Source of the DNA: an uncultured Acidobacteriota bacterium
GTDB taxonomy: Bacteria > Acidobacteriota > Blastocatellia > RBC074
Direction: 5' to 3'
NCBI GenBank assembly: GCA_963796275.1
Contig: CAWCKY010000006.1
Coordinates: forward strand, 2,176,001 to 2,240,000
Length of the DNA stretch: 64,000 nt
Below the pieces are notes generated by a model. The model had not been told where the DNA came from. It worked only from the letters and a program-made list of their open reading frames with translations, and did no database searches. The position numbers and the translations under genes are program-made. Each line of letters opens with the position of its first letter. Positions within the stretch are counted from its first letter, which is position 1. This document shows positions 27,712 through 59,619 of this stretch, in pieces.

Positions 27712-27737
27712 AGGAGAAGATCAGACGGAGCGCGATC

Positions 27738-28834: not shown

Positions 28835-28862
28835 ACTGTAGACCAGCATAATGGAACCAGTA

Positions 28863-31982: not shown

Positions 31983-32014
31983 CAGTAATTAAAAGGCATT
32001 TTTTAGGAGAAGAT

Positions 32015-32155
32015 ATGCGGAATCCATTTGCACGTAGAAGAAAGAATCACCCGCTTATGCGGGTTCTTGGTGGCGCGTTGATCGCGGTGGTCGGGGCGGG
32101 TGTAGTTAAGATGTTTCCGGACATCAGGCGATATCTCAAGATTAGCAGGATGTGA
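32015..32155 (+). CDS. 46-aa single-TM small protein (DUF6893-like), absent from the ORF track
   Basis: AGGAG RBS, then MRNPFARRRKNHPLMRVLGGALIAVVGAGVVKMFPDIRRYLKISRM. Fills the gap between the protease and DUF1440 genes. Confidence 0.75.
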   Translation: MRNPFARRRKNHPLMRVLGGALIAVVGAGVVKMFPDIRRYLKISRM

Positions 32156-32161
32156 GGCTCC

Positions 32162-32728: not shown

Positions 32729-32732
32729 AGTC

Positions 32733-33278
32733 GTGCGATACACTATAGAATCAGATCAGAGCCGGCTCACGATACATGCGTTTGCCAAAGGAATGCTCTC
32801 GGCATTCGGTCACAGCCCGACACTCGCGGTGCGTGGTCTAGCGGGCGAAGTCGACTTTGATGCGGATTCGCCTGGCGAGGCAACTCTCCGGCTGGGGTTC
32901 TCGACCGGATCTCTGGTCGTGCTGGATAATATAGGCGAAACAGATCGTCGCGAGATCGAACGGAAGACGCGCGAAGAAGTCCTGGAGATCGCTCATTTCC
33001 CTGAGGTTGTTTACCGAAGTTTGCAGGTATCGGCACGACCAACGGGAGAAGGGGCTTACAAGGTGGGGTTGAACGGCGAGTTGTCGCTGCACGGCGTCAC
33101 GCGCAATCAGGCCATCGAGGCCAGCGTGCTGGTGGCTCACAACTATTTGCACGCGCGCGGCGAATCGACGATACGGCAGAGCGATTATCGCATCGAGCCG
33201 GTCACCGCTCTCGGCGGCGCCATCAAATTGAAGGACGAACTCGTACTCACCTTCGATATAAAAGCATTTAGTCAGTAA
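32733..33278 (+). CDS. YceI-family (polyisoprenoid-binding) protein, no signal peptide
   Basis: Y.I...S start, FPEV.YRS, GELSLHGVTR and QSDY.I. Confidence 0.85.
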   Translation: MRYTIESDQSRLTIHAFAKGMLSAFGHSPTLAVRGLAGEVDFDADSPGEATLRLGFSTGSLVVLDNIGETDRREIERKTREEVLEIAHFPEVVYRSLQVSARPTGEGAYKVGLNGELSLHGVTRNQAIEASVLVAHNYLHARGESTIRQSDYRIEPVTALGGAIKLKDELVLTFDIKAFSQ

Positions 33279-33311
33279 CCTGGGTCGCAGCCGCGCTGCC
33301 AATGAGAGATT

Positions 33312-33710
33312 ATGCACGAATTATCCATAGCTCTGAGCATCATCGAAGGCGCTGAGGAAGAAGCCGCGCGGCACGGCGGCCAGGTCACCGCTGTGCATCT
33401 CCGGCTCGGTCCGCTATCTGGTGTGGTCAAAGATGCACTGCTCTTCTCTTATGACCTGGCTTCCGAAAACACGCCGCTCGCCGGCTCGCGCCTGGTGATC
33501 GAGGAATCGCCGGTCATCGTCTATTGTTCGCAGTGCGCCGCCGAACGCACGATCGCATCGATCCAATCTTTCTGCTGCCCGGTGTGCGGCGAGCCGGCGC
33601 CTGAAGTCGTGCGGGGAAGAGAATTGGAACTGGTAGCTTTGGAACTTAGCTCATTGGAGATGAAGAATGAATGCCAACTCGCGTCAGCCCCGAATACCCC
33701 GTCTGATTGA
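33312..33710 (+). CDS. hypA: Hydrogenase nickel metallochaperone HypA
   Basis: MHELSIA, CSQC, CPVC and GRELE. Confidence 0.95.
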   Translation: MHELSIALSIIEGAEEEAARHGGQVTAVHLRLGPLSGVVKDALLFSYDLASENTPLAGSRLVIEESPVIVYCSQCAAERTIASIQSFCCPVCGEPAPEVVRGRELELVALELSSLEMKNECQLASAPNTPSD

Positions 33711-34440
33711 GGTCAGGCGGAATGTGCTGAAGCAGAACGATCTGCTGGCCCGCGCGCTGCGCGAGCGTTTCAGCGATGCCGGGGTCTTCGTGGTCAGCAT
33801 CGTTTCAAGCCCCGGCTCCGGCAAGACGACCCTGCTGGAAAAAACGCTCGCTCATTTTCGGAGCGAATGCCGCGTCGCCGCGCTCGTCGGCGATCTGGCG
33901 ACAGACAACGACGCCGCGCGGCTCGCTCGCGCGAATGTTCCGGTCAAACAGATTACCACCGGAACAGTTTGTCACCTCGAAGCCGCGATGGTCGAACGCG
34001 CACTCGATGGCTGGAATCTCGCCGACCTCGATTACCTGTTCATCGAAAACGTCGGCAACCTGGTCTGCCCATCGAGTTATGATCTGGGCGAAGACCTGCG
34101 TCTGACCTTGATGTCTGTCACCGAAGGCGAGGATAAGCCGCTCAAGTACCCGACGATCTTCAACACCGCGGACGCGGCAGTCATCACCAAGATCGATCTG
34201 GCCGAGGCGGTCGAGTTTGATGCAAAGGCTGCTTACCGAAGCATTCAATCGGTCAGACCGGGAATGCAGGTTTTCGAGATTTCGGCGAAATCGGGCCGGG
34301 GTATGGATGAATGGCTGCAATATCTGCGATCGCAGCAAGAGGTGAAGCGAAATGAAGAGAGGATGGGATTCGGACGGGATATGAGGGATGAAACGAAACA
34401 TGATTCCACCCTTAATCCGCTTCCCGATAGCGAGACTTGA
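33667..34440 (+). CDS. hypB: Hydrogenase nickel-incorporation GTPase HypB
   Basis: SSPGSGKT, CHLEA, ENVGNLVCP, EGEDKPLKYP and TKIDL. Confidence 0.95.
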   Translation: MNANSRQPRIPRLIEVRRNVLKQNDLLARALRERFSDAGVFVVSIVSSPGSGKTTLLEKTLAHFRSECRVAALVGDLATDNDAARLARANVPVKQITTGTVCHLEAAMVERALDGWNLADLDYLFIENVGNLVCPSSYDLGEDLRLTLMSVTEGEDKPLKYPTIFNTADAAVITKIDLAEAVEFDAKAAYRSIQSVRPGMQVFEISAKSGRGMDEWLQYLRSQQEVKRNEERMGFGRDMRDETKHDSTLNPLPDSET

Positions 34441-36780
34441 TGGAGACGCGAACGCAAATACTGGTGCGGGGCATCGTGCAGGGAGTAGGGTTTCGGCCTT
34501 ACGTCTTTTCGCTCGCCCGTCAGCGTGTCCTGAGAGGCAGGGTTTTCAATAATTCATATGGCGTCCTGATCGAGGTCGAAGGCGAGGAGCAAGCTATTGA
34601 GCAGTTCGTTAGCGATCTGATCACGTACCTGCCGCCGCTCGCCGTCATCGAGTCGGTCGAGCGCCGCGACGATTTGATCCCCGCCAACTTCGGAGACTTC
34701 CAAATCATCGAGAGCGAAGTATCTGCTGAGAAGTTCGTGCCGATTCCGGCTGACATCGCTACCTGCGACGACTGCCTGCGAGAATTATTCGACCCGCGCG
34801 ATCGGCGGTTCCGCTATCCGTTCATAAACTGCACCAACTGTGGCCCTCGTTTCACGATCATCCAGGACATCCCGTACGACCGCGCGAGAACGACGATGCG
34901 CGAGTTTGTCATGTGCGGCGAGTGTCGGTCAGAGTATGAAAATCCGCACGACCGCCGCTTTCATGCCGAGCCGATCGCCTGTTCCGCCTGCGGCCCGCAA
35001 CTGCGTTTGACCGACGCGCAGGGCCGGGATGTTATGCCTCTTTCGGACTCAATAGACGGCGTCCTCAGCAATACCCGATGCCTGCTCAGCCAGGGGAGGA
35101 TCATCGCCATCAAAGGACTGGGCGGATATCATCTCGCCTGCGATGCGCTCGATACTGAAGCGGTCGAACGTCTGCGCCGCAAGAAGTATCGAGAGGACAA
35201 GCCATTTGCGCTGATGTGCGGCTCCATCGATCTCATCCGGGAGTATTGCGAAATCACGCAGGAAGAAAAAGAGTTGCTTCTGTCAGCGCACCGCCCCATT
35301 GTTCTGCTCGAGAAGAAATCGAGCGCGAAGATTCCGCGGGCAGTCGCTCCCGGCGTGAAAACGCTCGGCTTCATGCTTCCCTACACGCCGCTGCATCATC
35401 TGCTGCTGAAGGATTTGGACGGCCGCTCGTGATGACTAGCGGGAATATTTCGGATGAGCCGATATGTTATGAGGATGGCGAGGCCAGAGGGCGACTGGGC
35501 GAAATTGCCGATTATCTTCCTGTTGCACAACCGGCGCATTCAGATGCGCGATAGATGATTCGGTCGCGCGCGTGCACGCGGGAAGTGTAACTCAGCTTCG
35601 CCGTTCGCGCGGTTATGCGCCGGTGCCGCTCAAGACATCCGTTCGGCTTCAATCGAGCAGATTCTCGCCTGCGGCGCGGAGCTGAAGAACACTTTCTGTC
35701 TGACGCGCGAGCGACCACGCGTTCATCAGCCATCACATCGGCGATCTGGAGAATCTGGAGACCTTCGCTCATTTACGAACGGCATCGAGCATTTCAAGCG
35801 GCTCTTCGACCTTCAACCGGAAGTCGTCGCTTACGATCTGCATCCCGAATATCTCTCGACGAAATACGCGCTGTCGCTGCGATGAATCGTGCTTAAGATC
35901 GGCGTCCAGCATCATCACGCGCACATCGCGAGTTGCATGGCGGACAACGGTTTCGATGGCGAAGTCATCGGCGTGGCAATGGACGGACTCGGATTCGGCG
36001 AGGATGGCCGGTTCTGGGGCGGCGAGTTCTTCGTCGCCGATTATGCGACTGCCCGGCGCATCGCGCATCTGGCCTACGTGCCGATGCCTGGCGGCGCGAA
36101 AGCGATTCGCGAGCCGTGGCGGATGGCCGCGGTTTACCTTCACCGCGCGCTTGGCGATGAGTTCCTTCATTCTGGATTTGCCATTCGTGCAGCGGCTGAA
36201 TCGGCGGGCCTGGTGCGATGCTTAAACAGATGGCGGCCCGCGGCATCAACAGCCCTGAAACATCGAGCATGGGCAGGCTTTTCGACGCCGTGGCGAGCTT
36301 GCTCGGCGTGAGGGACGCGGTCAACTATGAAGGCCAGGCGGCGATCGAGCTGGAAGCGATGGCCGTCTGTGATGGCGAGCTCGGTTATGAATTTGAGTTC
36401 GATGCGACGCGCGGTATCATCGAGGCCGAACCGGTGATCCGGCAGATCGCAGCCGACCTGCTCGACGGCGTAACGGCTGAGGTGATATCGGCAAGGTTTC
36501 ATCGGGGTGTGGCGAAAAATGATAGAAATCGTAGCGCGTCGAATCAGGGAGCAGCAGGCGGCTGAACCGGGTGGCGCTGTCAGGCGGGGTATTTCAGAAC
36601 ATGTTGTTGCTGGAAATTACCAGTAAATTGCTGAGCGCCGCAGGCTTCGAGGTCTTCACTCATCACCGCGTGCCGCCGGGCGATGGCGGCATTGCTCTCG
36701 GTCAGGCGGCCGTCGCCAACGCCCGTCTCGCGTCCGACAAGCTTCTTTTAGACTTTCGGCTTCCGGAGAGGATCGAATCA
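34440..36780 (+). pseudogene. hypF: Carbamoyltransferase HypF, broken by many frameshifts as assembled (probably sequencing error); end approximate
   Basis: GIVQGVGFRP, CxxC zinc fingers and IKGLGGYHL in ORF 34437-35432. [33 protein letters not shown] and GDGGIALGQ follow in successive different frames. Confidence 0.9.
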
Positions 36781-37046
36781 TGTGCTTGGCGATACCTGGA
36801 AAGATCGTCGAGATCGTGGACGACGCGAACCGAATCGTTAAAGTCGATGTCGGCGGAGTTCGGCGAAACATCAATGTCGGAATGCTCGACCCGCATGAAG
36901 CGCAGGTCGGCGATTACGTGTTGATTCACGTGGGTTTTGCAATGAGCCGAATTGACGAGCGAGAAGCGGAAGAGACGCTGCGGCTGCTGAGAGAGCTGGG
37001 TTCTTACGAGGAAGAGTTTGATCAGTTCAAGGGCTCGATGAGCTGA
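36780..37046 (+). CDS. hypC: Hydrogenase maturation chaperone HypC
   Basis: MCLAIPG and [11 protein letters not shown]. Confidence 0.95.
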
Positions 37047-37058
37047 GGGCTGCGACCG

Positions 37059-37756
37059 ATGACCAGGCCAGTAGACCAATTTTCGCGAGCATTTTATCCG
37101 TTTCTGCACGCTGACGATCGCGCGCCACGGGAATTGATGGAAGACCTGCGCTTATCGCTGCTGGAGAAGGCGCGGGAGAGCGTCGAGGTGAAGAGCCGTT
37201 TCTTTGCCGAGCAACAGGAGACGATTCTGCAGCTCGCGCAGAAGTTGGCGCAGGCTTTTCATCGCGGGCGCAAGCTGCTTCGTATGCGGCAACGGCGGAT
37301 CGGCTACCGACGCGCAGCACATCGCCGTCGAGTTCATGCACCCGATCACGGTGGGCCGCAAAGCGCTGCCGGCGATCTGCCTCAACAACGACATGGCGAT
37401 GGTCACGGCGGTGGCCAACGATGTCGGATTTGCCGATGTCTTCGCGCGCCAGATCATCGCGCTCGGCGGTGAGGGCGACGTGCTGCTCGCCATTTCGACC
37501 AGCGGCAACTCGGAGAACCTGATGCATGCTTTTGCAGACGGCGCGGCGGTTGAAGCTCGTCACCATCGGCTTTGCGGGCGGCGACGGCGGCAGAATGGCT
37601 GCCATGCACGAACGGGGCTTGATCGATTATTGCCTGACTGTGCCGACTTCGAGCATTCACCGCATGCAGGAGACACACGTCACGCTCTATCACATAATGT
37701 GGGACATGGTGCATGAAATATTGCCGCATCGGTTGTTGCTGAGCGACCCGGCATAA
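37059..37756 (+). pseudogene. SIS-domain protein (GmhA/phosphoheptose isomerase-like), split over three frames
   Basis: GRKLL | CGNGGSATDAQH...ANDVGF...ISTSGNSEN | GGDGG...IHRMQETH, with frameshifts near 37280 and 37535. Confidence 0.85.
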
Positions 37757-37843
37757 CACTTAATCGCGGTCAGCTTTGTCCGGGAGGGGTGATGACAATC
37801 CGGTAACAGCGCCGTGACATTTCGATTCAGGGAAGGAGGCAAT

Positions 37844-38961
37844 ATGAAGTTCATCGACGAATATCGCGAAGGTGAGATTGCGGTAAGACTGGCAGAGCAG
37901 ATAGCGAAGATGACATCGCAACCGCTCAAGCTGATGGAGGTCTGCGGCGGCCACACGCACACGATCTTCAAGTACGGTATCGAAGATTTGCTGCCGCCCA
38001 ATATCGAGATGATCCATGGCCCGGGCTGCCCGGTCTGCGTGATCCCGCTGGGCCGCGTGGACGATGCGATTTCGATTGCGCTCAGGAGCGACGTCATTTT
38101 TACGACATTCGGCGACATGATGCGCGTGCCCGGATCAAAGACTTCGCTCCTGAAGGCGAAGGCCGAAGGGGCGGATGTGCGGATGGTCTATTCGCCGCTC
38201 GATGCGCTCAAGATCGCGCAACAAAATCCGGCGCGGCAAGTGGTCTTTCTGGCGCTCGGCTTCGAAACGACAGCGCCCTCGACAGCGCTGACTTTGATAC
38301 AGGCGGCGAAGGACGGGGTCGAGAACTTCAGCGTCTTCTGCAATCACATCATGATCGTGCCTGCGCTGAAAGCCATGCTCGATTCGCCCGACCTCAGGCT
38401 CGATGGCTTCGTCGGCCCGGGACACGTAAGCACGGTGATCGGCACGCGTCCCTATGAATTCGTGCCGCAGGAATACGGCAAGCCGCTCGTCGTCTCCGGC
38501 TTCGAGCCGCTCGACGTGCTGCAGTCGGTGTACATGATCGTGAAACAGATCGTCGAAGGCCGCGCGGAAGTCGAAAATCAATACGGGCGGGCAGTCCGGC
38601 GCGAAGGCAACCAGCGGGCGCTGGAGGCGCTCTGCGAGGTATTCGAGCCGCGCGAATATTTCGAGTGGCGCGGCCTCGGCTCGATCGCGCACAGCGGGAT
38701 GAAGCTGCGGGGCGAATACGCCGCCTTCGATGCCGAAGTGAAATATTCGATGCCCGGGTTGCGCGTCGCCGACCCAAAGGCCTGCCAGTGCGGCGAGATT
38801 TTGAAAGGCGTCAAGAAACCGTGGGAGTGCAAAGTCTTCGGCACGGCCTGCACGCCGGAAACGCCCATCGGTTCGTGCATGGTATCGAGCGAAGGCGCGT
38901 GCGCGGCCTATTACAACTTCGGCCGTCTATCGAAGATCGCCCATCGCGTGAGGTTAAAAAT
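37844..38961 (+). CDS. hypD: Hydrogenase maturation protein HypD (stop codon not present as assembled; end approximate)
   Basis: MEVCGGHTH, GPGCPVC, GFETT, PGHVS and CMVSSEGACAAYY. Confidence 0.92.
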
Positions 38962-40060
38962 ATGTCCAATCCCTTCACACCCTCACCTCTCTTTGAGCGC
39001 GTCGAGCGCGTGCGACGGCGGAAGCCTCGAGTCAAAGATGATTTCATCACCCTCTCGCACGGCAGCGGGGGCAAGGCGATGCACGAACTTATTGAGGGCT
39101 TGTTCCTCGACTACTTCTCCAACCCGCTGCTCGCTCCGCTCGAAGACCAGGCCGTGTTCGAGATCGCCAAAGGTAGGCGTCGCTTTCACGACCGATTCAT
39201 ATGTCGTAACGCCGCTCTTCTTTCCCGGCGGCGATATCGGGCGCCTCGCCGTCAGCGGCACGGTTAACGATCTGGCGATGAGCGGCGCTCGCCCGCTATA
39301 TCTTTCCGCCGGCTTCATCCTTGAAGAAGGTTTCCCCGTGATCGACCTCAAGTGCATCCTCGCATCAATGAGCGCAACGGCTGCGGAGGCCGGCGTGCAG
39401 ATAGTCACCGGCGACACGAAGGTCGTGCAGAAAGGCGGCGCCGATAAAATCTTCATCAATACATCAGGCATCGGACTGATCGAACAGCGCGCCGATATCT
39501 CGGTGGCAAGCGCCAAAATCGGAGATAAAGTGATAGTGAGCGGCTCAATCGGAGATCACGGCACTACGATTATGATTGCGCGCGGCGAGTTGGAGCTGGA
39601 GACCGAGATCGAAAGCGACGCTGCGCCTCTCAATTCGCTGGTCGCCGACATGCTCGATGAAGCCGCGCGCATCGATGCCCCCGGCGCGATCCATTGTCTG
39701 CGCGACCCGACGCGCGGCGGCGTGGCGACCACGCTCAATGAAATCGCCCTCAGTTCCGAAGTTTGTCTGCAAATCGAAGAATCACTGCTTCCCGTTCGCG
39801 AAGAGGTCAAGGGCGCATGCGAGATTCTCGGGCTCGATCCGCTTTATGTCGCCAACGAAGGCAAGCTCGTAGCATTGGTCGCGCCAGAGGTGGCGGACGC
39901 GGTATTAGAGCGGATGCGCAATCACCCGTTGGGCCGCGCAGCTCGCATCATCGGAGAGGCGAAAGCGGAACCGCCCGGCATCGTCGTCTTGCGGACGGCT
40001 TTCGGCGGTTCGCGCATCGTAGACTTGCTGGTCGGCGAACAATTGCCGCGCATCTGTTAG
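38962..40060 (+). CDS. hypE: Carbamoyl dehydratase HypE (frameshift near 39175)
   Basis: The N-terminus MSNPF...ITLSHGSGG...LEDQA is in a different frame from FTTDSYVV, GTVNDLAM, GDTKVV, RDPTRGG and C-terminal PRIC. Confidence 0.92.
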
Positions 40061-44079: not shown

Positions 44080-45300
44080 TTATGTATCCAGATCGCCGGC
44101 TGGTCCGAAGAACTCATAGTGGATCTGGGCCGGCTCCACCTTCCAGGCTTTGAGGGTCCGATAAATTGATTGCATAAATGGACGAGGGCCACAGAAATAA
44201 TAGTCACAATCCAGATGCGGCAATATACTCTCCAACCACTCGGCCGTGATCAAGCCGGTCCGATCGCAATGCTTCCCGCTCAGATCTTCGGCATCCGGTT
44301 CGCTATAACAAATATAGACGTGAACATTGGGATGGGAGGCTGCCAGTTTTTTTATCTGATCGTGCATCGCATGAGTGCGCCGATTGAGAGCGCCGTGAAT
44401 AAACCAGGTTTCCAGTTTCGGATATTGCTGACAGATTGTCTTCAACATACTGACCATCGGAGTCAGACCAACACCGCCGCTGAGAAGTACCACCGGGCGT
44501 CGGGTTTCGGGATCGAGAACGAAATTGCCCATCGGTGCGCGCAATTGAAGTTCCATGCCCGGCTGATAATGGTCGTGCAGATAACATGAGACCAATCCGT
44601 CAGGCATTTCAGCACCGCCGGCCGGCCGCCGCTCCCTCTTGATGCTGATTCGGTAATATTGCTCATTCGGGCTATCGGACAGACTGTAATTGCGCGTCAC
44701 AACGTCGCCACCGGGAAAGTCGATTTTGACTGTAATATATTGGCCGGGTTTATGAGCCGCGATCTTTCCCCCATCCTTGGGTTTCAGATAGAACGAGGTG
44801 ATGACTTCGCTCTCTTTCACCTTTTTGTCCAGCACGAATGTGCGGTAATCGGCCCAACCGCCATTCTGATCTTCCGCTTGTTGATAGAGCTTGCGCTCCG
44901 CCTGCACCAGGATGTCTGCCAGAAATTCATATGCTTCTTTCCAGGCAGCAACCTGCGCTTCATCAATCTGCAAAACATCTCTGAGAGCCTGGATCAGGTG
45001 GGCGCCCACAATCCCGTAATGCTCTGGCTTCACACCCAGCGAGGCATGTTTATTGGCGATCAGCTCTACTGCACCCGTCAAAGCTCCCAAGTTATCGATA
45101 TTCGCAGCATATGCCTGTATCGAGCGCGCCAAAGCGAGCTGCTGGCTCTGGCGCGTCTGATTCGCTCGATTGAATAGAGGCAGTACCTCCGGATTTTTGG
45201 CGAACAGCAGATCGTACATCCGAAGGGTCACATCCAGCGCTCGATCTGCAAGCACCGGCGCTGACGCCTTCACTATCTCGACTGTTTTTTGAGTCAACAT
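44080..45300 (-). CDS. hmp: Flavohemoglobin (NO dioxygenase)
   Basis: Globin (YAANIDNL, KHASL, HY.IVG), PGQY, RNYSL, GGVGLTP, CGP and EFFGP. Confidence 0.95.
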   Translation of the reverse strand: MLTQKTVEIVKASAPVLADRALDVTLRMYDLLFAKNPEVLPLFNRANQTRQSQQLALARSIQAYAANIDNLGALTGAVELIANKHASLGVKPEHYGIVGAHLIQALRDVLQIDEAQVAAWKEAYEFLADILVQAERKLYQQAEDQNGGWADYRTFVLDKKVKESEVITSFYLKPKDGGKIAAHKPGQYITVKIDFPGGDVVTRNYSLSDSPNEQYYRISIKRERRPAGGAEMPDGLVSCYLHDHYQPGMELQLRAPMGNFVLDPETRRPVVLLSGGVGLTPMVSMLKTICQQYPKLETWFIHGALNRRTHAMHDQIKKLAASHPNVHVYICYSEPDAEDLSGKHCDRTGLITAEWLESILPHLDCDYYFCGPRPFMQSIYRTLKAWKVEPAQIHYEFFGPAGDLDT

Positions 45301-45345
45301 TTTGACGCTCCTCAATTGATGTTTGATTGCACACATTTAATATAT

Positions 45346-48400: not shown

Positions 48401-48768
48401 GCGAATTGCGCAATTACCCACTGGTAATCCCTAGTTAATTTGTTAGAATCGCCCTGACTCTGGTATTTCATACTTTATCAACAAGATAAGAAAAAGTGGT
48501 TTCGCAGGAATATTGCTCTGCTTCCAACCTTTGGAATCCGATCTGCCAAAGCCGAACAAGAGCCTATATACGGGCTTCTTATTTAGATACACAGCTCATA
48601 TTTGTTTCTCACCACGATTAGCCTTGTATAATCTCATTTGCTGATGGGAAGCCCGAGATGATCGAATGGATTCGGCCATTATTTAGCCATTGGTCTGTAA
48701 TCAAAATTCAATCTGCGATCTCAAGCCAAATATGTCGGGAAAGGAATCAGGAGCGGAGGATATACAGA

Positions 48769-50772
48769 ATGAAGGTGAGCGATCTGCTAGAAGGCGAACT
48801 ACGGGGAGATGACCTCACCGGGCGAACGCGCATGCCGGAAAGTATTATCGAAGAACTAAGTATCTCGGATGAAAACGGGGTGATTTACATTACCCATCCG
48901 GATAAAGGCGAAAAGTTCGATCGAATGGGCAATGAGTTCGTCAGCGAGCAATTCAGTAAGAGTTTGCGCCCGCCTGAAGAAATGGGACGGATCGGCAAGG
49001 AATTTAGCGAACAATTGCGGATAACGGGATATTGGGAGAGGGAATGCATTGACAAGGAGAAAGATGGCGCCGTAATTGCAAGGTCCGCTCGACTCATCGG
49101 GCTTGAGTATGCTGGTAAAAAGTATTGGGTCCGCGTTCGAGGAGACATTACCGAACGTAAGAAGGACGAAATAGCACAGGCATACCTCGCAGCAATGGTG
49201 GAGTCATCTAACGATGCGATTATCGGTAAAACACTGCAAGGGATCATCACGAGCTGGAATATGGGCGCCGAAAAACTCTTCGGCTACACAGCATCGGAGA
49301 TGTTGGGACAGCCAATTACCGGTTTGATCCGACCTGATGGACGGGAGGAATCGGCCAATCAACTTGAGAGACTGGGACGAGGTGAACGGATTGAGAACTT
49401 TGAGACAGTGAGATTGAGGAAGGATGGAACGCCGGTCGATGTCTATATTACAGTATCACCGATCAATGATAGAAGTGGGCGAATTATCGGAGCGTCCGAA
49501 GTTGCGCGCGAGATCGGCGAGCGCAGGCTGGCCCAGGCGGAACGAGAAGAATTACTGATGAAGGAAGAAGCGGCTCGTGCCGAGGCACAGGCGGAAAATA
49601 ATGCCAAGGACGAAATCATCTCGCTGATCTCGCACGAATTGCGTTCGCCGCTCAATTCGATTCTCGGTTATAACCGCATGCTGCGCTCAAATCCGCATGA
49701 TGCGGAGCAGGTCAGCCAGACTTGCGACGTCATCGAGCGCGGTGCTCGCACGCAACTTCGCCTTCTTGAAGACCTGCTCGATACCTCGCGCATCATCAGC
49801 GGCAAACTGCGGCTCGACCCGCGCCCGACCGATCTCGTTCCGGTGCTCGCCGATGTTCTGGAGCTGATGCGTCCCATGGCAGAGGCGAAAGCCATCGTAC
49901 TGCGCGCGCGATATGACCTGAAACCGGAAATGGTCAATGGTGATCCGGTTCGGCTGCAGCAGGTGGTTGGTAATTTAATTGCAAATGCGATTAAGTTCAC
50001 GCCTGAGGGTGGACGCGTCGGGTTGTGCTTGGAACGCAGCGACGAAGAGATTCGTATCGTCGTCAACGATACGGGCGCAGGCATCGATCCGGAATTTCTT
50101 CCCCGCATCTTCGACCGTTTCAGCCAGGCCGATAGATCCATTTCGCGCTCGCACGGCGGTCTCGGTCTTGGCCTCGCGCTGGTGAAACATCTGGTCGAAA
50201 TGCACGGGGGCGGGGTCGAGGCTGCGAGCGAAGGTGTGGGGCTCGGTTCGACCTTCACTATTAAACTTCCGCCGTCCGTGCCGACCCTTTACTACAGTTT
50301 GGAATTGCCGGCTCTGCGGACTGAAGGCACGATCCCGTTACCTGAAATGGCGACAATTGAAGGCGTAAGCGTGCTGGCAGTAGATGATCAATCGGAGGCG
50401 CGCGAAGCGCTCGCCAGTTTTCTGAGCAACTGCGGCGCAATCGTGACGGCAGTCTCATCCGGCAGCGAGGCTTTGGCGATCCTGGCCGACCCACCGGGGG
50501 GCGATCGCCCTGATGTGCTCATTTGTGACATCGCCATGCCGGGTGAAGACGGCTACGCGGTGATGAAACGCATTCGGATGCTGGAAACAGCGCGCGGACT
50601 CAGAACCCCGCAGCGGATTCCTGCGATAGCTCTCACGGCGATGGCGAGTAGAGAGGACTGGGTGCGTGCGCTCAGCGCAGGATTCAATATGCACGTCGCC
50701 AAGCCAGTTGAACCCGCCGAACTGGTGATGATGATCGCCAGCCTCAAGGGAGAGCAGATCAAGAGAGCATAA
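48769..50772 (+). CDS. Cytoplasmic hybrid histidine kinase: degenerate PAS, PAS, HisKA, HATPase, REC
   Basis: SSNDAIIG..WN, SHELRSPL, NAIKFT, DTGAGI, GLGLGL, CDIAMP and KP. No TM segment. Confidence 0.92.
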   Translation: MKVSDLLEGELRGDDLTGRTRMPESIIEELSISDENGVIYITHPDKGEKFDRMGNEFVSEQFSKSLRPPEEMGRIGKEFSEQLRITGYWERECIDKEKDGAVIARSARLIGLEYAGKKYWVRVRGDITERKKDEIAQAYLAAMVESSNDAIIGKTLQGIITSWNMGAEKLFGYTASEMLGQPITGLIRPDGREESANQLERLGRGERIENFETVRLRKDGTPVDVYITVSPINDRSGRIIGASEVAREIGERRLAQAEREELLMKEEAARAEAQAENNAKDEIISLISHELRSPLNSILGYNRMLRSNPHDAEQVSQTCDVIERGARTQLRLLEDLLDTSRIISGKLRLDPRPTDLVPVLADVLELMRPMAEAKAIVLRARYDLKPEMVNGDPVRLQQVVGNLIANAIKFTPEGGRVGLCLERSDEEIRIVVNDTGAGIDPEFLPRIFDRFSQADRSISRSHGGLGLGLALVKHLVEMHGGGVEAASEGVGLGSTFTIKLPPSVPTLYYSLELPALRTEGTIPLPEMATIEGVSVLAVDDQSEAREALASFLSNCGAIVTAVSSGSEALAILADPPGGDRPDVLICDIAMPGEDGYAVMKRIRMLETARGLRTPQRIPAIALTAMASREDWVRALSAGFNMHVAKPVEPAELVMMIASLKGEQIKRA

Positions 50773-50859: not shown

Positions 50860-53268
50860 TTATTCAAATCGTCCGGCAAGACTGGCCACAACGGCGATCA
50901 ACTCATCTGGTTCTACGGGCTTCGGTAGGTGCGATTGAAAGCCTGCTGCAATCGCTTTCAGACAATCTTCTTTCCTGGTATACCCCGAAAGTGCGATAGC
51001 TGGTACGTTACCGCCTTGTTCGGGAGGCAGAGCTCTCACCTTGCGGATAAAGGAGTAACCATCTTCTTTCGGCATACCGATGTCGGAGATGAGGACATCT
51101 GGACTCCATTCGGCCAGGCCTATAAGCGCTTCATTTACGGATGCTACGCCTTTAACCTGAGCTCCATTTTTCTCAAGCATTATTGTGACCAAATTTAGGC
51201 CATCTTCTTCATCATCAACTATTAGCACTCGCAGATCTGCCAGGTTAGAGGCAACCCCTGGTATATCACTCTCGTTCCAGGCTTGAGCGAAATTTGGAGC
51301 AGTTTGATGACCTACCGGCTTTTCCCTCTGATCTTTGGCGGTTGAGAGTGGAAGCCGAACCGTAAAGATTGCTCCCTGTTCATCAGCGCGGGGGCTAGCT
51401 GTAACTGTCCCACCGTGCAGTTCGACGAGATGGCGAACGATTGACAGTCCCAAACCTAATCCACCATGAATGCGGGTGGTGGAGGAATCTTCCTGGCGAA
51501 AGCGGTCGAAGACATAAGGTAAAAACTCCGGCTTTATCCCCGGACCAGTATCAATTACTTTGATTTCTACGTGTGAATCATTATGTCCTGAAAGTATCTG
51601 TACAGAACCTCCTTGCGGGGTAAATTTGATAGCATTGGAGATGAGATTCCAGACAACTTGTTGCAGACGGTTGGCATCTCCAAGGGCGAGATTGACCTCG
51701 TGATCGAGCGATATCTGCAGTCTCACACCTTTGGCTTCCGCCGCCAGACGCATGGAATCAACCGCCGCTTCGATTACCGAAGGGATATACACTTGAGCCA
51801 TTTGGATGCTGAGCTTCCCGGTTATGATGCGAGATACATCAAGGATATCTTCGATAATCCGCTGCTGCGCCTGGGCATTGCTCTCGATGATCTCGGCTGC
51901 CCGCAGAGCGCTCTCCGCATCCAGCATTCCGAGTCGCAGAAGACGCGCCCATCCGAGCATGGCGTGCAACGGAGCGCGCAGTTCATGGGAAACGGTTGCG
52001 AGAAACTCGTCTTTCAGACGATTGGCCGTCTCGGCCTCGGCACGCGCCTTCCGCTCGACCGTATACAAGCGGGCATTGTCGATGGCGACGGCAGCCTGAG
52101 CGGCTAATCCTGCGGCAATCTGCTCCGAACTGTCGGAAAAGATCCCGGGCTCAGAATGGGCGAGGAAGAGCCCACCTAGCACTTTGCCCGAACGGGAAAT
52201 GACAGGTATAGCCAGGTAACTAGTTACCGGCAAATGTTTAGACGGAATCCCGTAAAATGGTGAGTTTTTACCATAACGTGAATCTTTCTTCACGTCATCA
52301 ACGCGCACAATACCTTCGCCGCAAAACGTCGGGTCAAAAATCTCCGTGACTCGCGACAAGGTGAAATGGGCCAGGCGCTCGCGTGGGGCCCCGGAGAACG
52401 TGTGGAGCATTGATGAATCGCCCATTTCGTTCAGAACATTATAGAAGAAGGCGCCGATTTGGGCCCCTGCCAATTCAGTCGCAGCATCAGTGATAGATTG
52501 CACCAACTTTTCCAGGTTGAGCTCGGCTGAGAGCATCCGCCCGGTCTTGTTAACCGTCTCGATGATCTCTCGCTCTTCTTCCAGCTGTCCCTGGATTCTC
52601 GTACGCTCGACGATCTCAGCTTGCAGCTCTGCGTTCGCTCTTGCCAAATCCGAGGTTCGTTGCTGGACTCTTACTTCCAACTCGTCGTGCGCTCTTCTCA
52701 GCGCCTCCTCCGACTCCTTGAGCTGACTGATATCGAACGCTACTCCGTGAACGAACCATGGTCGCCCATCGTCGTGCCGTACCATCTTGGCTTCACAACG
52801 AAACCAAACCACATGTCCATCGCGCGCCAATATTCGATAGACGGATTGCAGCGGCTCGCCTGAAAGGAGCAGACGTGCGGCTTCTTTATTCCAACGTGCT
52901 TTATCCTCGGGATGTATCTGACGATACCAGCGCACCGGATCGTTGAGCCATTCCTGCTGCGTGAAGCCAAGCATCGGCTCGATTTGTGGGTTGATGTAAG
53001 CCTCGCTGATTCCTTTATCGAGGAAAGCCATGAAAACGATGGCGGGAATTTGCTCCAGGAGGGTCCGGTATTTAGCCTCGATGTCTGTCGATGGGGCTGC
53101 TACGACAGTCGCCCTCATTAGCTGCCTGATCGTCTCGCTGTCCGGTTCTAGGATGCTGAAATCAGATGAAGAAAACACTCGCGCAAGCCCGTCAAGAATG
53201 GCGACAGCTTCTGAAGGGCTGACAGGATTGTTATCTTCAAAAGAATTATTCGGCTGTCCGTTTCGCAT
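50860..53268 (-). CDS. Cytoplasmic hybrid histidine kinase: N-terminal extension, PAS, coiled coil, GAF, HisKA, HATPase, REC
   Basis: IHPED/DIS PAS motifs, SYLAIPV...AAVAIDNA (GAF), SHELRAPL, NAIKFT and SDIGMP. Starts about 40 bp after the second small-subunit gene. Confidence 0.93.
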   Translation of the reverse strand: MRNGQPNNSFEDNNPVSPSEAVAILDGLARVFSSSDFSILEPDSETIRQLMRATVVAAPSTDIEAKYRTLLEQIPAIVFMAFLDKGISEAYINPQIEPMLGFTQQEWLNDPVRWYRQIHPEDKARWNKEAARLLLSGEPLQSVYRILARDGHVVWFRCEAKMVRHDDGRPWFVHGVAFDISQLKESEEALRRAHDELEVRVQQRTSDLARANAELQAEIVERTRIQGQLEEEREIIETVNKTGRMLSAELNLEKLVQSITDAATELAGAQIGAFFYNVLNEMGDSSMLHTFSGAPRERLAHFTLSRVTEIFDPTFCGEGIVRVDDVKKDSRYGKNSPFYGIPSKHLPVTSYLAIPVISRSGKVLGGLFLAHSEPGIFSDSSEQIAAGLAAQAAVAIDNARLYTVERKARAEAETANRLKDEFLATVSHELRAPLHAMLGWARLLRLGMLDAESALRAAEIIESNAQAQQRIIEDILDVSRIITGKLSIQMAQVYIPSVIEAAVDSMRLAAEAKGVRLQISLDHEVNLALGDANRLQQVVWNLISNAIKFTPQGGSVQILSGHNDSHVEIKVIDTGPGIKPEFLPYVFDRFRQEDSSTTRIHGGLGLGLSIVRHLVELHGGTVTASPRADEQGAIFTVRLPLSTAKDQREKPVGHQTAPNFAQAWNESDIPGVASNLADLRVLIVDDEEDGLNLVTIMLEKNGAQVKGVASVNEALIGLAEWSPDVLISDIGMPKEDGYSFIRKVRALPPEQGGNVPAIALSGYTRKEDCLKAIAAGFQSHLPKPVEPDELIAVVASLAGRFE

Positions 53269-53307
53269 AATGTCTGTATCGACGCGTGACTTTTATTTAC
53301 TCGACTA

Positions 53308-54341
53308 TTACTCTACATCCTTACGCCGCCATTCGGGTTCCTTATTCAGTGAATCTGCGTAAATCTGCGCAGAGCATGAATTGCCTTACCATAAGTCATG
53401 ACCGCGTGTGATGATAAGAGCGAGCCTGGTGGCTGGTCCATAAACGGCATGAACTTGTCCGGAAATCCGGGCATCGTACAGCCGATGCAGACCCCACCAA
53501 CGTTCGGGCAACCGCCGAGCCCGGACATCCAACCACGTTTCCCCACATTGCATTGGACCACAGGCCCCCAGCATCCCAATTTCACGATGCAGCTGGATGC
53601 CCCATACTCGTCTGCGAAATCCGCCTGCTCGTAGTATCCCCCGCGGTCGCACCCTTCATGGACCGTTTGGCCGAAAAGCCATGTCGGCCGCAGGGCTTCA
53701 TCGAGCGGTATCATCGGAGCACGCCCCGAAAACTGATAGAGCAGATAAAGCAGGGTCTCCGTGAAGTTATCAGGAAGAATCGGGCATCCCGGCACGCATA
53801 CAATCGGAATATCCGCTTTGGATTTCCAACTCCAACCCAGATAGTCCGCCAGCCCCATGCACCCGGTAGGGTTTCCTTCCATCGCGTGGATTCCCCCATA
53901 AGTCGCACACGTTCCAGCCGCCATCACTGCCCAGGCTTTGGACGCCAATCTATCGATCCATTCACAGGTGGTGATGGGTTGACCTGTTTCTTTATCTGCG
54001 CCGAAGCCAGCCCAGTAACCTTCGCTTTTGATCTTTTCGTTGGGGATTGAGCCCTCGATTACCAGGATGAATGGTTCGAGCTTACCCTCATCAGCCAGAT
54101 AAAAGTATTTCATGAAGTCGTTGCCGACTTCATAAGCTAGAACGGGGTTACGGAAATTCACTTTGGGGATTCCCGGTATGGCGCCGAGTACAAAATCTTC
54201 GATACTCGGTTGCGTGGCTGCTGTTAACGCAATCGTATCACCATCGCAGCCGAGACCTGCTGTTATCCAAAGAACATCGATCTCCTCGATCGGTTTGGGG
54301 ACCTGTATCTCTTTGTCCGGGATAACGGTCGTATCCGGCAT
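53308..54341 (-). CDS. hhyS: Second group 1h-type [NiFe]-hydrogenase small subunit (1-bp frameshift near 53355)
   Basis: LGCDGD, GTCATYGG, PGCP, HEGCDR and CPNVGGVCIGC. The ORF stops at 53346, but the conserved tail SLNKEPEWRR continues in the adjacent frame to TAA at 53308. Confidence 0.9.
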
Positions 54342-54363
54342 TTTGATTCCTCCTCATACTTAC

Positions 54364-54435
54364 GTTTGGAGTTCCGCGTTTACGCGGTCTTCTGCCTCAC
54401 ATGGTTTCAAACCGCCTGAAGGCGGAACTCCAAAC
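54364..54435. repeat. REPIN doublet between the second large- and small-subunit genes
   Basis: GTTTGGAGTTCCGCGTTTACGCGGT ... ACCGCCTGAAGGCGGAACTCCAAAC. Confidence 0.85.
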
Positions 54436-54454
54436 TTAGTTTCAAGCGTAACGT

Positions 54455-56258
54455 TCACCATTTTCCACCAAGACCGAACATCGTTGAATGGCGGGTCTCC
54501 AATACCTTGCCATTGCCCAGATACATATGGACGCCGCAAGGCATGCAAGGATCAAAGCTGCGTACCACGCGCATGATGTCGATGCCCTTGAATTTTGCGG
54601 GCTCATTCTCCTCGAAGATCGGCGTACCCTGTACTGCATCCTCATAAGGACCGGGCGTGCCGTGGATATCGCGCGGGCTGGCATTCCACGGCGTCGGAGG
54701 GTACGGATGATAGTTGGCGATCTTACCATCGCGGATAACCATATGGTGCGAAAGCATACCTCGCACCGCTTCGTGGAAACCGCATCCGATCGCCTCCTCC
54801 GGCACGGAAAAATGCGACCAGGTTTTTGTCCTACCGGCATGCACCTCCGCCAGAGCCCGCTCAACAAAGTAGAGAGCTGCCGCCGCTGCATACGCCTGGA
54901 AATAGGTACGAGCGCGGTTGCGCTCAAGCGCATTGCTCCACTTGGGGATCCTCCACTCGAATTCAGCCTCCGGCAACATGGCCGTTTTCGGCAGATTGAT
55001 CTTCACGCTATTACCGGTGGCCTTGATGTATCCGATATCGACCAACCCATTGAGTGCAGTCGCCCAGAGACGGGCTAGCGGTCCGCCGCCGCTGTCCAGC
55101 GCTAGATATTTGCCGGTCACGGTGTCATACCAGCGGGGAGACGTAACCCAGGTATACTTTCCCGCGAAATCGCGCTTCTGAGGTTTCGGAATGGTGACCT
55201 GATTCCATGGATGTAATTGATCAACCTCATTGCCGAGCGGGTCTCTCTCGACAAATTTCTCCGCATTACTCCAATCTTCATAGTAAGAACTTCCGAGCAA
55301 AATGCGAATGCCCAGATTGATCTTGATCAGATCATTGGTGACGATCTTGCCGTCCACTATCACGCTCGGCGTGACATACATAGCTCGCCCCCAATCGGGC
55401 ATATTCTTATATGTGTAATCGCAGACTTCAGGATTATTCCCATGACCCCCAACAACCAAGCAGAATCCGCCGCTCACCGACCCTTTCATATCCTGGCAGA
55501 GCCTCGTAGAAAAAGTTGAAAAGATCGTCATGCAAAGGTACAACTTTCTTGATGAATTCGGTGTACTTCATCAGACGAACCAGGTAGTCGGTGAAAACCT
55601 GGAGGCTGGGTACTGTGCCAACACCCCCCGGATAAAGGGTTGAAGGATGCACGTGACGGCCTTCCATCAGACAGAACATCTCGCGGGCCAAACGGCTCAT
55701 TTGCAGAGCCTCCCGATAAAATTCTCCGCTGAAGGGATTGAGCGCGCGCATAATATCGGCGATGGTTCGATAGCCATCGACCATGGCTCCCGGAGCGCTC
55801 GTTTTCTCGGCCTTCTCCAGTACACCGGGGTTGGTCTCCTTTACCATCTGCTCGCAATAGTCCACACCAGCCAGGTTATCCTGATAGATGTTATGATCGA
55901 ACATGTACTCGGCTGCTTCGCCGAGATTTATTATCCACTCGGCCAACTCGGGAGGCCTCACGCCGAAGGCCATGTTCTGCGCATAAACAGCGCAGGTTGC
56001 GTGATTGTCCCCGCAGATGCCGCAGATGCGGCTGGTGATGAAATGAGCGTCGCGTGGATCTTTGTTCTTCATAAAAACGCTGTACCCACGGAAGATTGAA
56101 GATGTGCTATGACACTCGGCTACCACATTGTTCTTAAAGTCGATCTTGGTATAAATGCCGAGGCTCCCGATGATGCGGGTAATCGGGTCCCAGCTCATCT
56201 CAACTAATCGCTCTCCCTCAGGCATTCCCACTTTTTCCGGTTGTTCTAAGCTGGCCAA
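54455..56258 (-). CDS. hhyL: Second group 1h-type [NiFe]-hydrogenase large subunit (1-bp frameshift near 55440)
   Basis: L1 TSRICGICGDNH in ORF 55434-56258 and L2 SFDPCMPCGVH in ORF 54455-55543. Removing one G from TGGGAAT restores GCWGSWNNPEVCDY. Confidence 0.9.
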
Positions 56259-56453
56259 TTGCTCACCCCCATATGTGGTATCTCTCAGTCACGGGTGATA
56301 ACTTAGAAGGAGAGTCGAGGTAAGGTGCGCGTAGGGCCGGGCTTACACGTATCTTCGAGTTCCCACTCCCTTCCTACTATACAAATCGAGATTGAAATGT
56401 ATAGCTCCCGCACTGTCTCCTTTGGGTTCACTCGTGTTTAGTCAATAAATAGT

Positions 56454-56469
56454 TGCAATTGCTATGCCG
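56454..56469 (-). promoter_or_regulatory. Putative sigma54 (-24/-12) promoter for the second hydrogenase operon
   Basis: Minus strand CGGCATAGCAATTGCA matches YGGCAY-N5-TTGCW with exact spacing, about 195 bp upstream of the start. Confidence 0.65.
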
Positions 56470-57110: not shown

Positions 57111-59183
57111 GTGGAGGACATCATATTTATGCTAGAGGAATTCATTGAATGGAAACGGCCCGAAGACGTACTGGCTAACCTTGCAGCTATCTTGGAATCA
57201 TCGGACGATGCGATTATTGGCAGAACACTGCAAGGGTTCATTATGAGTTGGAATAAGAGCGCCGAGAAGCTCTTCGGCTACGAGGCATCAGAGATCATAG
57301 GGCAACCGGTGAACACATTGGTTCCACCCGACCGGCGCGTTGAAGCGATTGAGATTCTGGAGAGGCTGTATCGAGGCGAGCGAATCGAGCAATTTAAGAC
57401 GGTGCGGTTAAAGAAGGACGGAACTCGGTTTGCTGTCTCCTTAACTCTCTCTCCGATGAAGGATATAGATGGGCGAATGATCGGAGCTTATAAAATCGTG
57501 CGTGATATCAGTGAGCGAAAGAGGTATGACGAAATTCCGGACAGAAGCGACGCGATGTTTGGCAGCCTGCTCGAGAATTTGCCCGCGGCGGTATACACAT
57601 GCGATTCCGATGGATTGATCACTTATTTCAATATACGTGCAGCGCAACTCTGGAGGCGGGCGCCGAAGCTGAACGACCCGGAGGAGCGATTCTGCGGCTC
57701 ATGCCAGCTCTTCTCCGCCGAAGGAGAACCCCTATCGCATGATCGGAGCCTGATGGCGCAGGCGCTCAAAGAAGATAAGGAATTCAATGGATGCGAGATG
57801 ATGATGGGGCGGCCTGATGGATCGCGTCTATCTGCACTCGCTCATATCGTCCCGATCCATGATGATTTCGGCAAAATTCTAGGTGCCGTGAATCTCCTGA
57901 TAGATATTAATGATCGAAAACGCACTGAAATGAAATTGTTGGGGGTGGAGAGGGCAGCCCGCGCCGAAGCAGAAACCGCAAACCGCTCCAAAACAGAATT
58001 CCTCTCGCTCGTATCCTATGAATTACGGTCACGTCTCAACTCAATAATCGGATATAACCGCATACTACGTTCGAACCAGAATGACGATATGGAGACTAGA
58101 CGGGCGTGCGACATCATCGAGCGGAACGCGCGGGCACAGTTGCGTCATGTGGAGGATATCCTCGACACGACTCAAATCGCCAACGGCCAGTTGCGGCTCG
58201 ACAAGCGCCCGACAGACATAGTTTCAATACTCGCAGACACTCTCGACGTGATACGTATGGAGGCCAAGGAAAAAGGCATCGAATTGTTCACGTACTACAG
58301 CCCAAAAAAGGAGGCGGTCATTGGCGATGCCGTCCGGCTGCAGCAGCTGTTCTGGAATCTTCTCTCGAACGCGGTAAAACATACGCCCAGAGGCGGCCGC
58401 ATAGAATTATGGCTGGATCGTAAAGCTGATTTAGTCAACATTATAGTTAAAGATTCAGGCATAGGCATCAAACCGGAAATTTTGCCCCATATCTTCGAAC
58501 GTTCCGGGCGCACCGATCCATCGAATACGAACGAGCGCGGCGGTCTCGGTATCGGACTGGCGCTCGTGAAAACCCTGGTCGAGATGCACGGTGGGTCAAT
58601 CAAGGCTGCGAGCGGAGGCCCGGGGCGTGGATCTACCTTCACCGTTACGCTTCCATTGGCAGATGAGAAAGGATTCTATTCACCTAATCTGCCAGCCATC
58701 AAGACTGAAGAAGCGATCCAGCCCGAGTCAGTGTTACAGCTGTACGACCGTGCGATGATTGAAGGTGCGCGCGTATTGGTAGTAGACGATCAGGAAGAGG
58801 CACGCGTAACCGTTGCCGATTTTCTGAGAAAATCCGGCGCAATCGTAACTGCTGTCTCCTCAGGCAACGACGCTTTATCGATTCTGGACGACCCACCGGG
58901 CGGCGAGCGACCGGAAGTGCTCATATGCGATATTGCCATGCCGGATATAGATGGTTACACGGTTCTAAAGCGTGTGCGTGAACTCGAAGCAAAGCGCGGC
59001 CTCAGTGCGTCGCAGGAGATTCCGGCGGTTGCTCTCACAGGGATGGCTCAGATTGAAGATCGTATGCGCGCTCTCAGTGCGGGTTTCCGGATGCACCTGA
59101 CCAAGCCGGTTGAGCCAACCGAGCTGATGGTCGTGATCGCTAACCTGATGGGTGCTCATATCGAGGGCACGCTCTGCAATTAA
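57111..59183 (+). CDS. PAS-PAS hybrid histidine-kinase-like protein with degenerate H-box (His->Tyr)
   Basis: SSDDAIIG..WN, second PAS, SYELRSRL, NAVKHT, DSGIGI, GLGIGL and CDIAMP. Paralog of 48769-50772. Confidence 0.9.
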   Translation: MEDIIFMLEEFIEWKRPEDVLANLAAILESSDDAIIGRTLQGFIMSWNKSAEKLFGYEASEIIGQPVNTLVPPDRRVEAIEILERLYRGERIEQFKTVRLKKDGTRFAVSLTLSPMKDIDGRMIGAYKIVRDISERKRYDEIPDRSDAMFGSLLENLPAAVYTCDSDGLITYFNIRAAQLWRRAPKLNDPEERFCGSCQLFSAEGEPLSHDRSLMAQALKEDKEFNGCEMMMGRPDGSRLSALAHIVPIHDDFGKILGAVNLLIDINDRKRTEMKLLGVERAARAEAETANRSKTEFLSLVSYELRSRLNSIIGYNRILRSNQNDDMETRRACDIIERNARAQLRHVEDILDTTQIANGQLRLDKRPTDIVSILADTLDVIRMEAKEKGIELFTYYSPKKEAVIGDAVRLQQLFWNLLSNAVKHTPRGGRIELWLDRKADLVNIIVKDSGIGIKPEILPHIFERSGRTDPSNTNERGGLGIGLALVKTLVEMHGGSIKAASGGPGRGSTFTVTLPLADEKGFYSPNLPAIKTEEAIQPESVLQLYDRAMIEGARVLVVDDQEEARVTVADFLRKSGAIVTAVSSGNDALSILDDPPGGERPEVLICDIAMPDIDGYTVLKRVRELEAKRGLSASQEIPAVALTGMAQIEDRMRALSAGFRMHLTKPVEPTELMVVIANLMGAHIEGTLCN

Positions 59184-59448
59184 ACGGTTGTCCCGGTTTT
59201 ATCGAATGCCCCCGCTGCACGGGGCCGGGGCAACGGGGCATGTGGGGCACGGGGCGTTCACAAAAATTTGAGCCAAATCAAGCGACACCTTATCAAGAGA
59301 CACCTTATTTTGTTTGCGAGATGCGGCCGAAACTGAAATCCTGCCGCCGTTTTGTATATGACAAACCTGGAAATTGTCTGAAGTGTGTGCAAATAAAAGA
59401 TCAATGGATCAATGTTATCGTCCTTGAGCGCCAGAGGCGCGGAATATT

Positions 59449-59558
59449 TATAGCACTCGTTCATCCAAACATCGCAAGCTCCGGAGGAGGAGCGGCATAT
59501 AGGCGTTCAAATGTCGCTCCTCCCGGAGCTTGCGATGTTTGGATGAACGAGTGCTATA
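59449..59558. repeat. Long palindromic element with 36-bp perfect inverted repeat
   Basis: TATAGCACTCGTTCATCCAAACATCGCAAGCTCCGG and its exact complement at 59523-59558. Confidence 0.85.
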
Positions 59559-59619
59559 TAGATCAGGCTCCTCCGGAGCCAATCAGAAACTAATAACCCA
59601 ACTTTAATTGGCAAACTCA

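Follow-up and report, generated by a model that had tools for sequence, protein, structure and literature searches.

A branch of group 1h [NiFe]-hydrogenase small subunits encoded next to PAS histidine kinases in Acidobacteriota, and its candidate role in hydrogen sensing

A second group 1h hydrogenase pair next to a hybrid histidine kinase

We analyzed a 64,000-nucleotide stretch from the genome of an uncultured Acidobacteriota bacterium (“the window”, G000:C6:2176001-2240000, G000 being the source assembly of 9.46 Mb in 7 contigs), and focused on three genes lying head to tail on its minus strand: hhyL2, hhyS2, and a kinase gene termed K2. hhyL2 (54455-56258) encodes the large subunit of a group 1h [NiFe]-hydrogenase and is read from two open reading frames (ORFs; 55434-56258 and 54455-55543) joined across one frameshift at 55437-55450. 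hhyS2 (53308-54341) encodes a 1h small subunit of the type called “kinase-linked” below, its listed ORF (53346-54341) being extended across a frame change to a corrected stop. K2 (50860-53268) starts with an ATG at 53268, 39 nt after that stop, and encodes a soluble hybrid histidine kinase of 802 residues, in which an N-terminal stretch and a PAS_3 domain (together residues 1-200, with PAS_3 itself at 90-177) are followed by GAF (250-397), HisKA, HATPase_c, and receiver (REC; Response_reg in Pfam) domains. An initial annotation of this DNA had described the same arrangement, i.e., a paralogous hydrogenase pair in reversed order (L then S, relative to the canonical hhyS-hhyL) with Ni-binding and Fe-S motifs retained, followed about 40 bp later by a kinase of PAS-GAF-HisKA-HATPase-REC architecture, and had read it as an H2-sensing system. 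The layout was borne out in each of these points.

Both hydrogenase subunits could be assigned from their best solved match, 5AA5, which was reached with E-values of 1.4e-165 for S2 and of 2.9e-152 and 1.9e-170 for the two parts of L2, more than 100 orders of magnitude ahead of all other hydrogenases. Chains of the group 2a enzyme Huc reached only 1e-15 and 1e-31, which does not point to group 2. The two L2 ORFs align to residues 18-275 and 273-579 of 5AA5 chain C and include, aligned to that structure, the two CxxC NiFe-binding motifs RICGICG and DPCMPCGVH, the latter followed by a tail of 23 residues. S2 keeps all 12 Cys/His ligand columns (C32, C145, H152, C186, H228, C231, C251, C257, C264, C278, C285, and C288), which are kept in 99-100% of both small-subunit branches described below and whose assignment to particular Fe-S clusters we presume. 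One trait of group 1h, adjacent genes for NifU-like and hypothetical accessory proteins, is found at copy 1, the canonical operon of the same window, and not at copy 2. NCBIfam holds no model specific to either small-subunit type, all matches falling below the curated cut-offs. Both L2 and S2 belong to group 1h.

A derived branch of HhyS is linked to one kinase input module

Next, we scanned one genome per species with an alignment of the kinase module (N-terminal stretch and PAS_3), which yielded 405 relatives, and examined the best 80. These are mostly from Acidobacteriota, with some from Binatia, Verrucomicrobiota, and Myxococcota, and include the record of a cultured organism, Pyrinomonas methylaliphatogenes K22, which has the small subunit and kinase pair. 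A small-subunit gene lies directly upstream of the kinase module at 78 of these 80 loci, the exceptions being L050 and L070, the latter on a contig with only 298 nt ahead of the match. Script-predicted kinase start codons overlap the stop codon of the small-subunit gene in 13 of 74 pairs. When 127 small-subunit genes were sorted by whether they were nearer to S2 or to S1, 78 S2-like genes were followed by the kinase and a single one had no kinase next to it, while 42 S1-like genes (outgroup included) were followed by a large subunit and 5 genes were at contig ends or unclear. At L075, a frameshifted gene was read twice, which accounts for one S1-like call beside a kinase.

In a tree of 126 of these 127 rows (one over-long ORF was dropped), the canonical small subunits form a single clade (Shimodaira-Hasegawa-like approximate likelihood-ratio support of 100, branch length 0.59), with all kinase-linked ones outside it. 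The row L084 comes from a genome flagged as unpublished (G332), and no conclusion rests on it. The canonical type retains the residues of HofK of 5AA5; the kinase-linked type is derived. The substitutions that set S2 apart from HofK and canonical HhyS at signature columns are H22D, H62N, V92I, P267G, E303Q, A307S, N329Q, T331S, and H340R, and the signature of the branch reads D22, N/R/K62, I92, G267, Q303, S307, Q329, S331, and R340, with Q303 and S307 present in 78 of 78 sequences. Most of these branch-specific conserved differences lie in the C-terminal third, past the last cluster motif. S2 of the window carries D22, L24, N62, I92, G267, Q303, S307, and Q329, the next signature column being hidden by the frame change, and the branch as a whole is 73-83% identical to it over the entire length, N-terminal domain included. 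Across 40 loci with both types, mean identity was 83.8% among canonical subunits, 77.6% among kinase-linked ones, and 68.6% between the two types within a genome, which indicates an apparently old duplication with both copies under constraint.

HhyS2 is thus a member of a derived group 1h small-subunit branch that keeps all three Fe-S cluster motifs and is encoded directly before a kinase with one specific N-terminal and PAS_3 module. The initial annotation had looked to a distinct kinase-linked subclade of both subunits across genomes, and this expectation holds for the small subunit, with a support of 100 for the canonical clade that leaves out the kinase-linked ones and with conserved linkage, but not for the large subunit, as L2 groups weakly with the canonical ones of its own family. 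An L-S-kinase order conserved across genomes did not materialize either: the conserved unit is the small subunit with the kinase, and L-S-kinase was seen only here and at L076 and L077.

The linkage was also evaluated in an even sample of 301 genomes from the phylum Acidobacteriota, among which 14 have a 1h-type small subunit. Nine of these (G000, G029, G031, G141, G169, G181, G190, G300, and G308, covering seven family codes) have the kinase-linked type, with the kinase next to it and a 1h large subunit present in nine of nine, while the other five (G079, G094, G200, G220, and G295) have hhyS-hhyL alone. A profile of the kinase module gave 10 matches of 239-311 bits, all in the same nine genomes, and the next best match, to the PAS part only, scored 142 bits; residues 1-200 of K2 reached 311 bits, equal to the best relatives. 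Kinase-linked small subunit and kinase module therefore co-occur one-to-one, no sampled genome having only one of them.

Separately, a second kinase with the same N-terminal and PAS_3 module but no small subunit in front was seen at L119 (G169:C15, 6078-6572) and L090 (7685-8086). In G169, this second module copy lies just upstream of the canonical hhyS-hhyL, and the small subunit-kinase pair lies on a different contig.

A constant input module with variable outputs

Among 74 kinases of this set, PAS_3 was found in all 74 and HATPase_c in 73, while HisKA_3 was found in 47, HisKA in 26, REC in 10, and GAF in K2 only: the kinase input module is constant and the output varies. The first ~200 kinase residues in G001, G019, and G029 are 48-56% identical to K2, the N-terminal module of K2 shares 50-54% identity with small-subunit-linked kinases from three relatives in alignment A1, and the K2 transmitter is ~52% identical to the hybrid kinases of L038-L042, L048, L066, and L079. 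The regulator of the K22 record consists of Response_reg and GerE domains (Pfam), and NarL-like regulators were recognized by eye in three relatives. An NtrC-type regulator, as used by known sensory hydrogenases, was not found near copy 2, these relatives having NarL-type regulators instead. A complex prediction for the L040 small subunit and residues 1-212 of its kinase (82% and 63% identical to the window pair, with a 75-row alignment each) returned a score of 0.00, which favors neither an interaction nor its absence.

Large-subunit partners in relatives

Gene order in the relatives bears on what the kinase-linked small subunit works with. In G001, G019, and G029, the order is a small subunit (78-80% identity to S2), the kinase, a NarL-type regulator, and then hhyS-hhyL-nifU, and no second large subunit was found in these three genomes; many relatives have the pair 2-3 kb upstream of hhyS-hhyL-nifU. 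An S-kinase-L order is seen at L093, L102, L103, and L114, in bins labelled Myxococcota, Binatia, and Verrucomicrobiota, and at L114 an accessory ORF and a gene for a HycI protease come next. The genomes of L093, L114, L103, and L077 (G328, G329, G331, and G330), which are possibly incomplete metagenome bins, each hold a kinase-linked small subunit as their only one of group 1h, together with a single strong 1h large-subunit match; the extra matches were a partial 59% fragment in G328 and a 44% match of another group in G329. Since the sole 1h small subunit there stands beside the sole 1h large subunit, the kinase-linked type must, judging from gene content, pair with a large subunit in these four genomes. 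In the large-subunit tree, L2 clusters, with support 80, with the canonical large subunits from its own family, on a branch of 0.23, as compared to 0.09 for L1. The large subunits of the L-S-kinase and S-kinase-L loci form separate clades, and a single clade of all kinase-linked large subunits was not rejected (approximately unbiased test, p = 0.338).

The absence of an own large subunit in most relatives could mean that the small subunit acts without one, as a three-cluster protein sensing redox, O2, or Fe-S status, with hhy tuned to redox rather than to H2. The concentration of conserved differences from the canonical type in the C-terminal third, after the last cluster motif, would fit such a sensor as well. 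We nonetheless consider it unlikely, because the whole length of the protein, N-terminal domain included, is conserved across the branch, a 1h large subunit was present in all nine sampled carriers, the four genomes above have no small subunit other than the kinase-linked type next to their sole 1h large subunit, and in the window a constrained L2 adjoins it.

Conversely, L2-S2 might be a second catalytic isoenzyme, i.e., an ordinary uptake hydrogenase with another electron-transfer partner or expression niche, next to a kinase that regulates it or is co-regulated with it and senses something else through its PAS and GAF domains. L2 and S2 retain every catalytic and cluster motif, L2 retains the C-terminal processing tail, the kinase-linked type is apparently the only 1h enzyme in G328, G329, G331, and G330, and the L114 pair precedes an accessory ORF and a protease gene, all of which speak for this reading. 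However, this reading leaves unexplained why most genomes keep an orphan small subunit beside the kinase and why the branch co-occurs one-to-one with the kinase input module and not with its output, and copy 2 is without NifU-like or DUF5947/DUF6084 accessory genes of its own. We regard a second isoenzyme as unlikely.

A further observation concerns L031 (G001:C882, 3140-4857), from a same-genus genome, where a NifU-like gene comes directly after a canonical-type small subunit, without an intervening large subunit; this bin is fragmented and has 7% contamination.

Copy 2 is probably intact

Both hydrogenase genes of copy 2 are interrupted in the assembly. In L2, a run of GGGGG or GGG within 55437-55450 carries one extra base, and the tail of S2 runs on in another frame after a TT run (53352-53353), where it resembles the tails of relatives and ends at a TAA (53308-53310). 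Essential genes are affected as well: in this assembly, rpoB and rpoC are each spread over several frames (G000:C6:1266086-1274588, with a longest open frame of 368 residues in the rpoB region), and hypF is split over 4 ORFs (window 34437-36924). The assembly is rich in indel errors, and frameshifts or “pseudogenes” in this genome need checking before interpretation. Given this fragmentation of rpoB, rpoC, and hypF, both frameshifts are very probably assembly artefacts, as the initial annotation had supposed, and we take all three genes as intact. The alignment of an otherwise identical soil-metagenome contig ends precisely at 53352 and leaves 14 letters unaligned, a weak hint of an indel there.

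Evidence of constraint comes from L2 itself, which has 3 changes at the 253 columns invariant in 42 other 1h large subunits (0-8 in other rows), and from a plant-metagenome run with contigs ~92% identical to L2, S2, and K2, one of them bridging the S2 end and the kinase start. In one ~92% identical L2 contig, 26 of the 37 differences listed fall at third codon positions (binomial p = 5e-6; 268 further differences exist beyond those listed). From this identity and third-position bias, the cluster is present in a second organism, with L2 evolving under purifying selection.

A decaying duplicate, in which the frameshifts would be real, hhyL2 and the hhyS2 tail inactivated, and the kinase neighborhood a remnant, would account for two frame changes within 2.1 kb, for the long L2 branch, and for the dispersed repeat inserted between L2 and S2. 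It is very improbable in view of the broken rpoB and rpoC, the position of both frame changes in short homopolymer runs, the lack of excess L2 changes at invariant columns, and the mostly third-position differences from the close relative. A recent strain-specific duplication, which would have spoken against the reading of the initial annotation, was likewise rejected: the two copies share 82% (L) and 73% (S) amino acid identity, and 75.5% DNA identity for L.

The repeat in question, in the hhyL2-hhyS2 spacer (54363-54436), is a palindromic dispersed element resembling repetitive extragenic palindromic (REP) sequences, with ~280 blastn matches in the genome and a predicted hairpin of -43.8 kcal/mol. 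It reaches very high depth with many joints in two metagenomes, and metagenome contigs break there.

Other features of the window

The canonical uptake operon (copy 1, 24837-40060, plus strand) encodes HhyS1, HhyL1, NifU-like, DUF5947, and DUF6084 proteins, an ORF without family, a HycI protease, HypA, HypB, HypF (the 4 ORFs above), a SIS protein, and HypD and HypE in one ORF. No NifU-like, DUF5947/DUF6084, other accessory, protease, or hyp gene adjoins copy 2, as initially annotated, all of these sitting with copy 1. The HypD and HypE domains share a single 748-residue ORF (37814-40060), which may be a real fusion or the result of an assembly indel removing the hypD stop codon.

Copy 2 is flanked by two more PAS hybrid histidine kinase genes, as had also been described, both on the plus strand: one convergent (48658-50772) and one divergent (57111-59183). 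They are paralogous to each other (48% identical over ~560 residues) and ~41-43% identical to the transmitter part of K2. A sigma54-type motif had also been noted upstream of hhyL2 (56454-56469, minus strand). It has 2 mismatches and is at chance level, with 23 such matches in the window against 27.1 expected from shuffles, and we rejected it as a promoter.

Between the two hydrogenase clusters lies a flavohaemoglobin-type gene with globin, FAD-binding, and NAD-binding domains (44080-45336, minus strand). Elsewhere in the genome, a third hydrogenase locus (G000:C4:200850-205544) comprises a small-subunit gene and two large-subunit genes in tandem, with products ~37-42% identical to the 1h pair, and a lone fragment (G000:C1:151555-152049) resembles the N-terminal part of a large subunit (47% identity).

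Discussion

Taken together, these patterns lead us to favor, with modest confidence, hhyL2, hhyS2, and K2 as a hydrogenase-coupled sensor kinase that parallels HoxBC-HoxJ on a 1h scaffold. In such a system, the N-terminal and PAS_3 module of the kinase would dock on the kinase-linked small subunit, perhaps at the branch-specific residues past the last cluster motif, and the kinase would read the redox state of the small subunit’s Fe-S chain. That state would be set by H2 oxidation at a 1h large subunit, i.e., L2 here and the single HhyL in most relatives, and the signal would be passed by phosphotransfer to control hhy expression. The output may differ between carriers, being a hybrid kinase with a phosphorelay here, whereas HisKA_3 kinases would serve in 47 of 74 relatives and adjoin a NarL-type regulator in those checked. 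The initial proposal of H2 sensing is supported in part, as far as the kinase-linked small-subunit branch, its linkage, the non-recent origin of copy 2, and the indels as probable errors are concerned, while the L-S-kinase unit, the L2 subclade, the sigma54 promoter, and an NtrC-type output were not borne out; H2 as the signal and control of the uptake operon would be further parts of it.

Several points weigh against this interpretation. L2 keeps its 23-residue tail after the C-terminal CxxCxxH motif, while the large subunits of group 2b sensors are not known to have a C-terminal processing tail. In most relatives, the kinase-linked small subunit has no large subunit reserved for it, and H2 dependence would then need a shared HhyL. 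The PAS_3 domain has no recognizable cofactor, its best solved matches being generic PAS domains, and K2 is a hybrid kinase, yet no Hpt protein or output regulator was found nearby: the ORFs at 59240-59593 and 30165-31148 match no Pfam family at E 0.5 and provide no Hpt candidate. No motif is shared beyond chance level between the DNA upstream of hhyS1 and that upstream of hhyL2, which have 3 10-mers in common where 1.06 would be expected and shuffles gave up to 8. Neither frameshift site is covered by any source-strain read, and two metagenome runs do not cover the L2 site. Finally, related genomes are not independent, and the counts given here overstate the number of independent events.

The closest known counterparts of the proposed hydrogenase-coupled kinase are the group 2b regulatory hydrogenases with their kinases, HoxBC-HoxJ-HoxA of Cupriavidus necator and HupUV-HupT-HupR, as presented in the portions covered of PMC5037454, PMC13098282, and PMC12319191. 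As in these systems, a hydrogenase small subunit (in the window, a large one too) is encoded beside a soluble PAS histidine kinase, and in relatives the pair adjoins the uptake hydrogenase genes that it would control. Unlike in group 2b, copy 2 belongs to the 1h lineage, L2 keeps a C-terminal tail, most carriers dedicate only a small-subunit paralogue to the kinase, and the output is a NarL-type regulator or a hybrid-kinase phosphorelay instead of an NtrC-type activator. Compared to the 1h enzymes Hhy and Hof (5AA5 HofKG of Ralstonia eutropha; Hhy of M. smegmatis and P. methylaliphatogenes), copy 2 has the same fold and motifs but a reversed gene order, no adjoining accessory genes, and a kinase next to it.

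In the HydDB table, group 1 has no sensory class, such classes being confined to [NiFe] groups 2b and 2c and [FeFe] group C, and the part of that article covered lists as putative sensors the diguanylate cyclase-linked [NiFe] group 2c and the histidine kinase-linked [FeFe] group C1 (PMC5037454). As for these two, a sensor role for copy 2 is drawn from a genetic or physical link to signalling domains, the lineages being unrelated. A comparative study of Acidobacteria describes hhyS, hhyL, hhyE, hupD, and hyp genes, and the term “histidine kinase” does not occur in the portion of its text covered (PMC5900883), while a 2026 paper, in the sections covered, holds that the signals and sensors of atmospheric H2 oxidation are still to be understood and asks how Hhy is induced (PMC13098282). 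Within the portions of the literature searched, including PMC5037454, PMC13098282, PMC5900883, PMC6776052, PMC6688271, and PMC12319191, no description of a kinase-linked HhyS was found; supplements and the 2015 PNAS paper on P. methylaliphatogenes, which could show upstream genes, were outside this scope. The kinase-linked HhyS branch is widespread and apparently previously undescribed.

Group 1h hydrogenases oxidize atmospheric H2 and thereby account for a major sink in the global hydrogen cycle. Extrapolating from the patterns above, we tentatively suggest, with somewhat less than even confidence, that soil Acidobacteriota and some Binatia, Verrucomicrobiota, and Myxococcota sense H2 or its electron flux by a system that evolved independently of HoxBC/HupUV, in which a 1h small-subunit paralogue would dock a PAS kinase, mostly borrowing the large subunit of the uptake enzyme; the window, where the pair comes with its own large subunit, would hold the fullest form. 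The small-subunit paralogue and kinase found directly upstream of hhySL in many Acidobacteriota are a concrete candidate sensor for atmospheric H2 oxidation. If this is true, they would represent the missing sensor of that process and a second, independent origin of hydrogenase-based signalling, and would mean that a sensor can be built from the small subunit alone.

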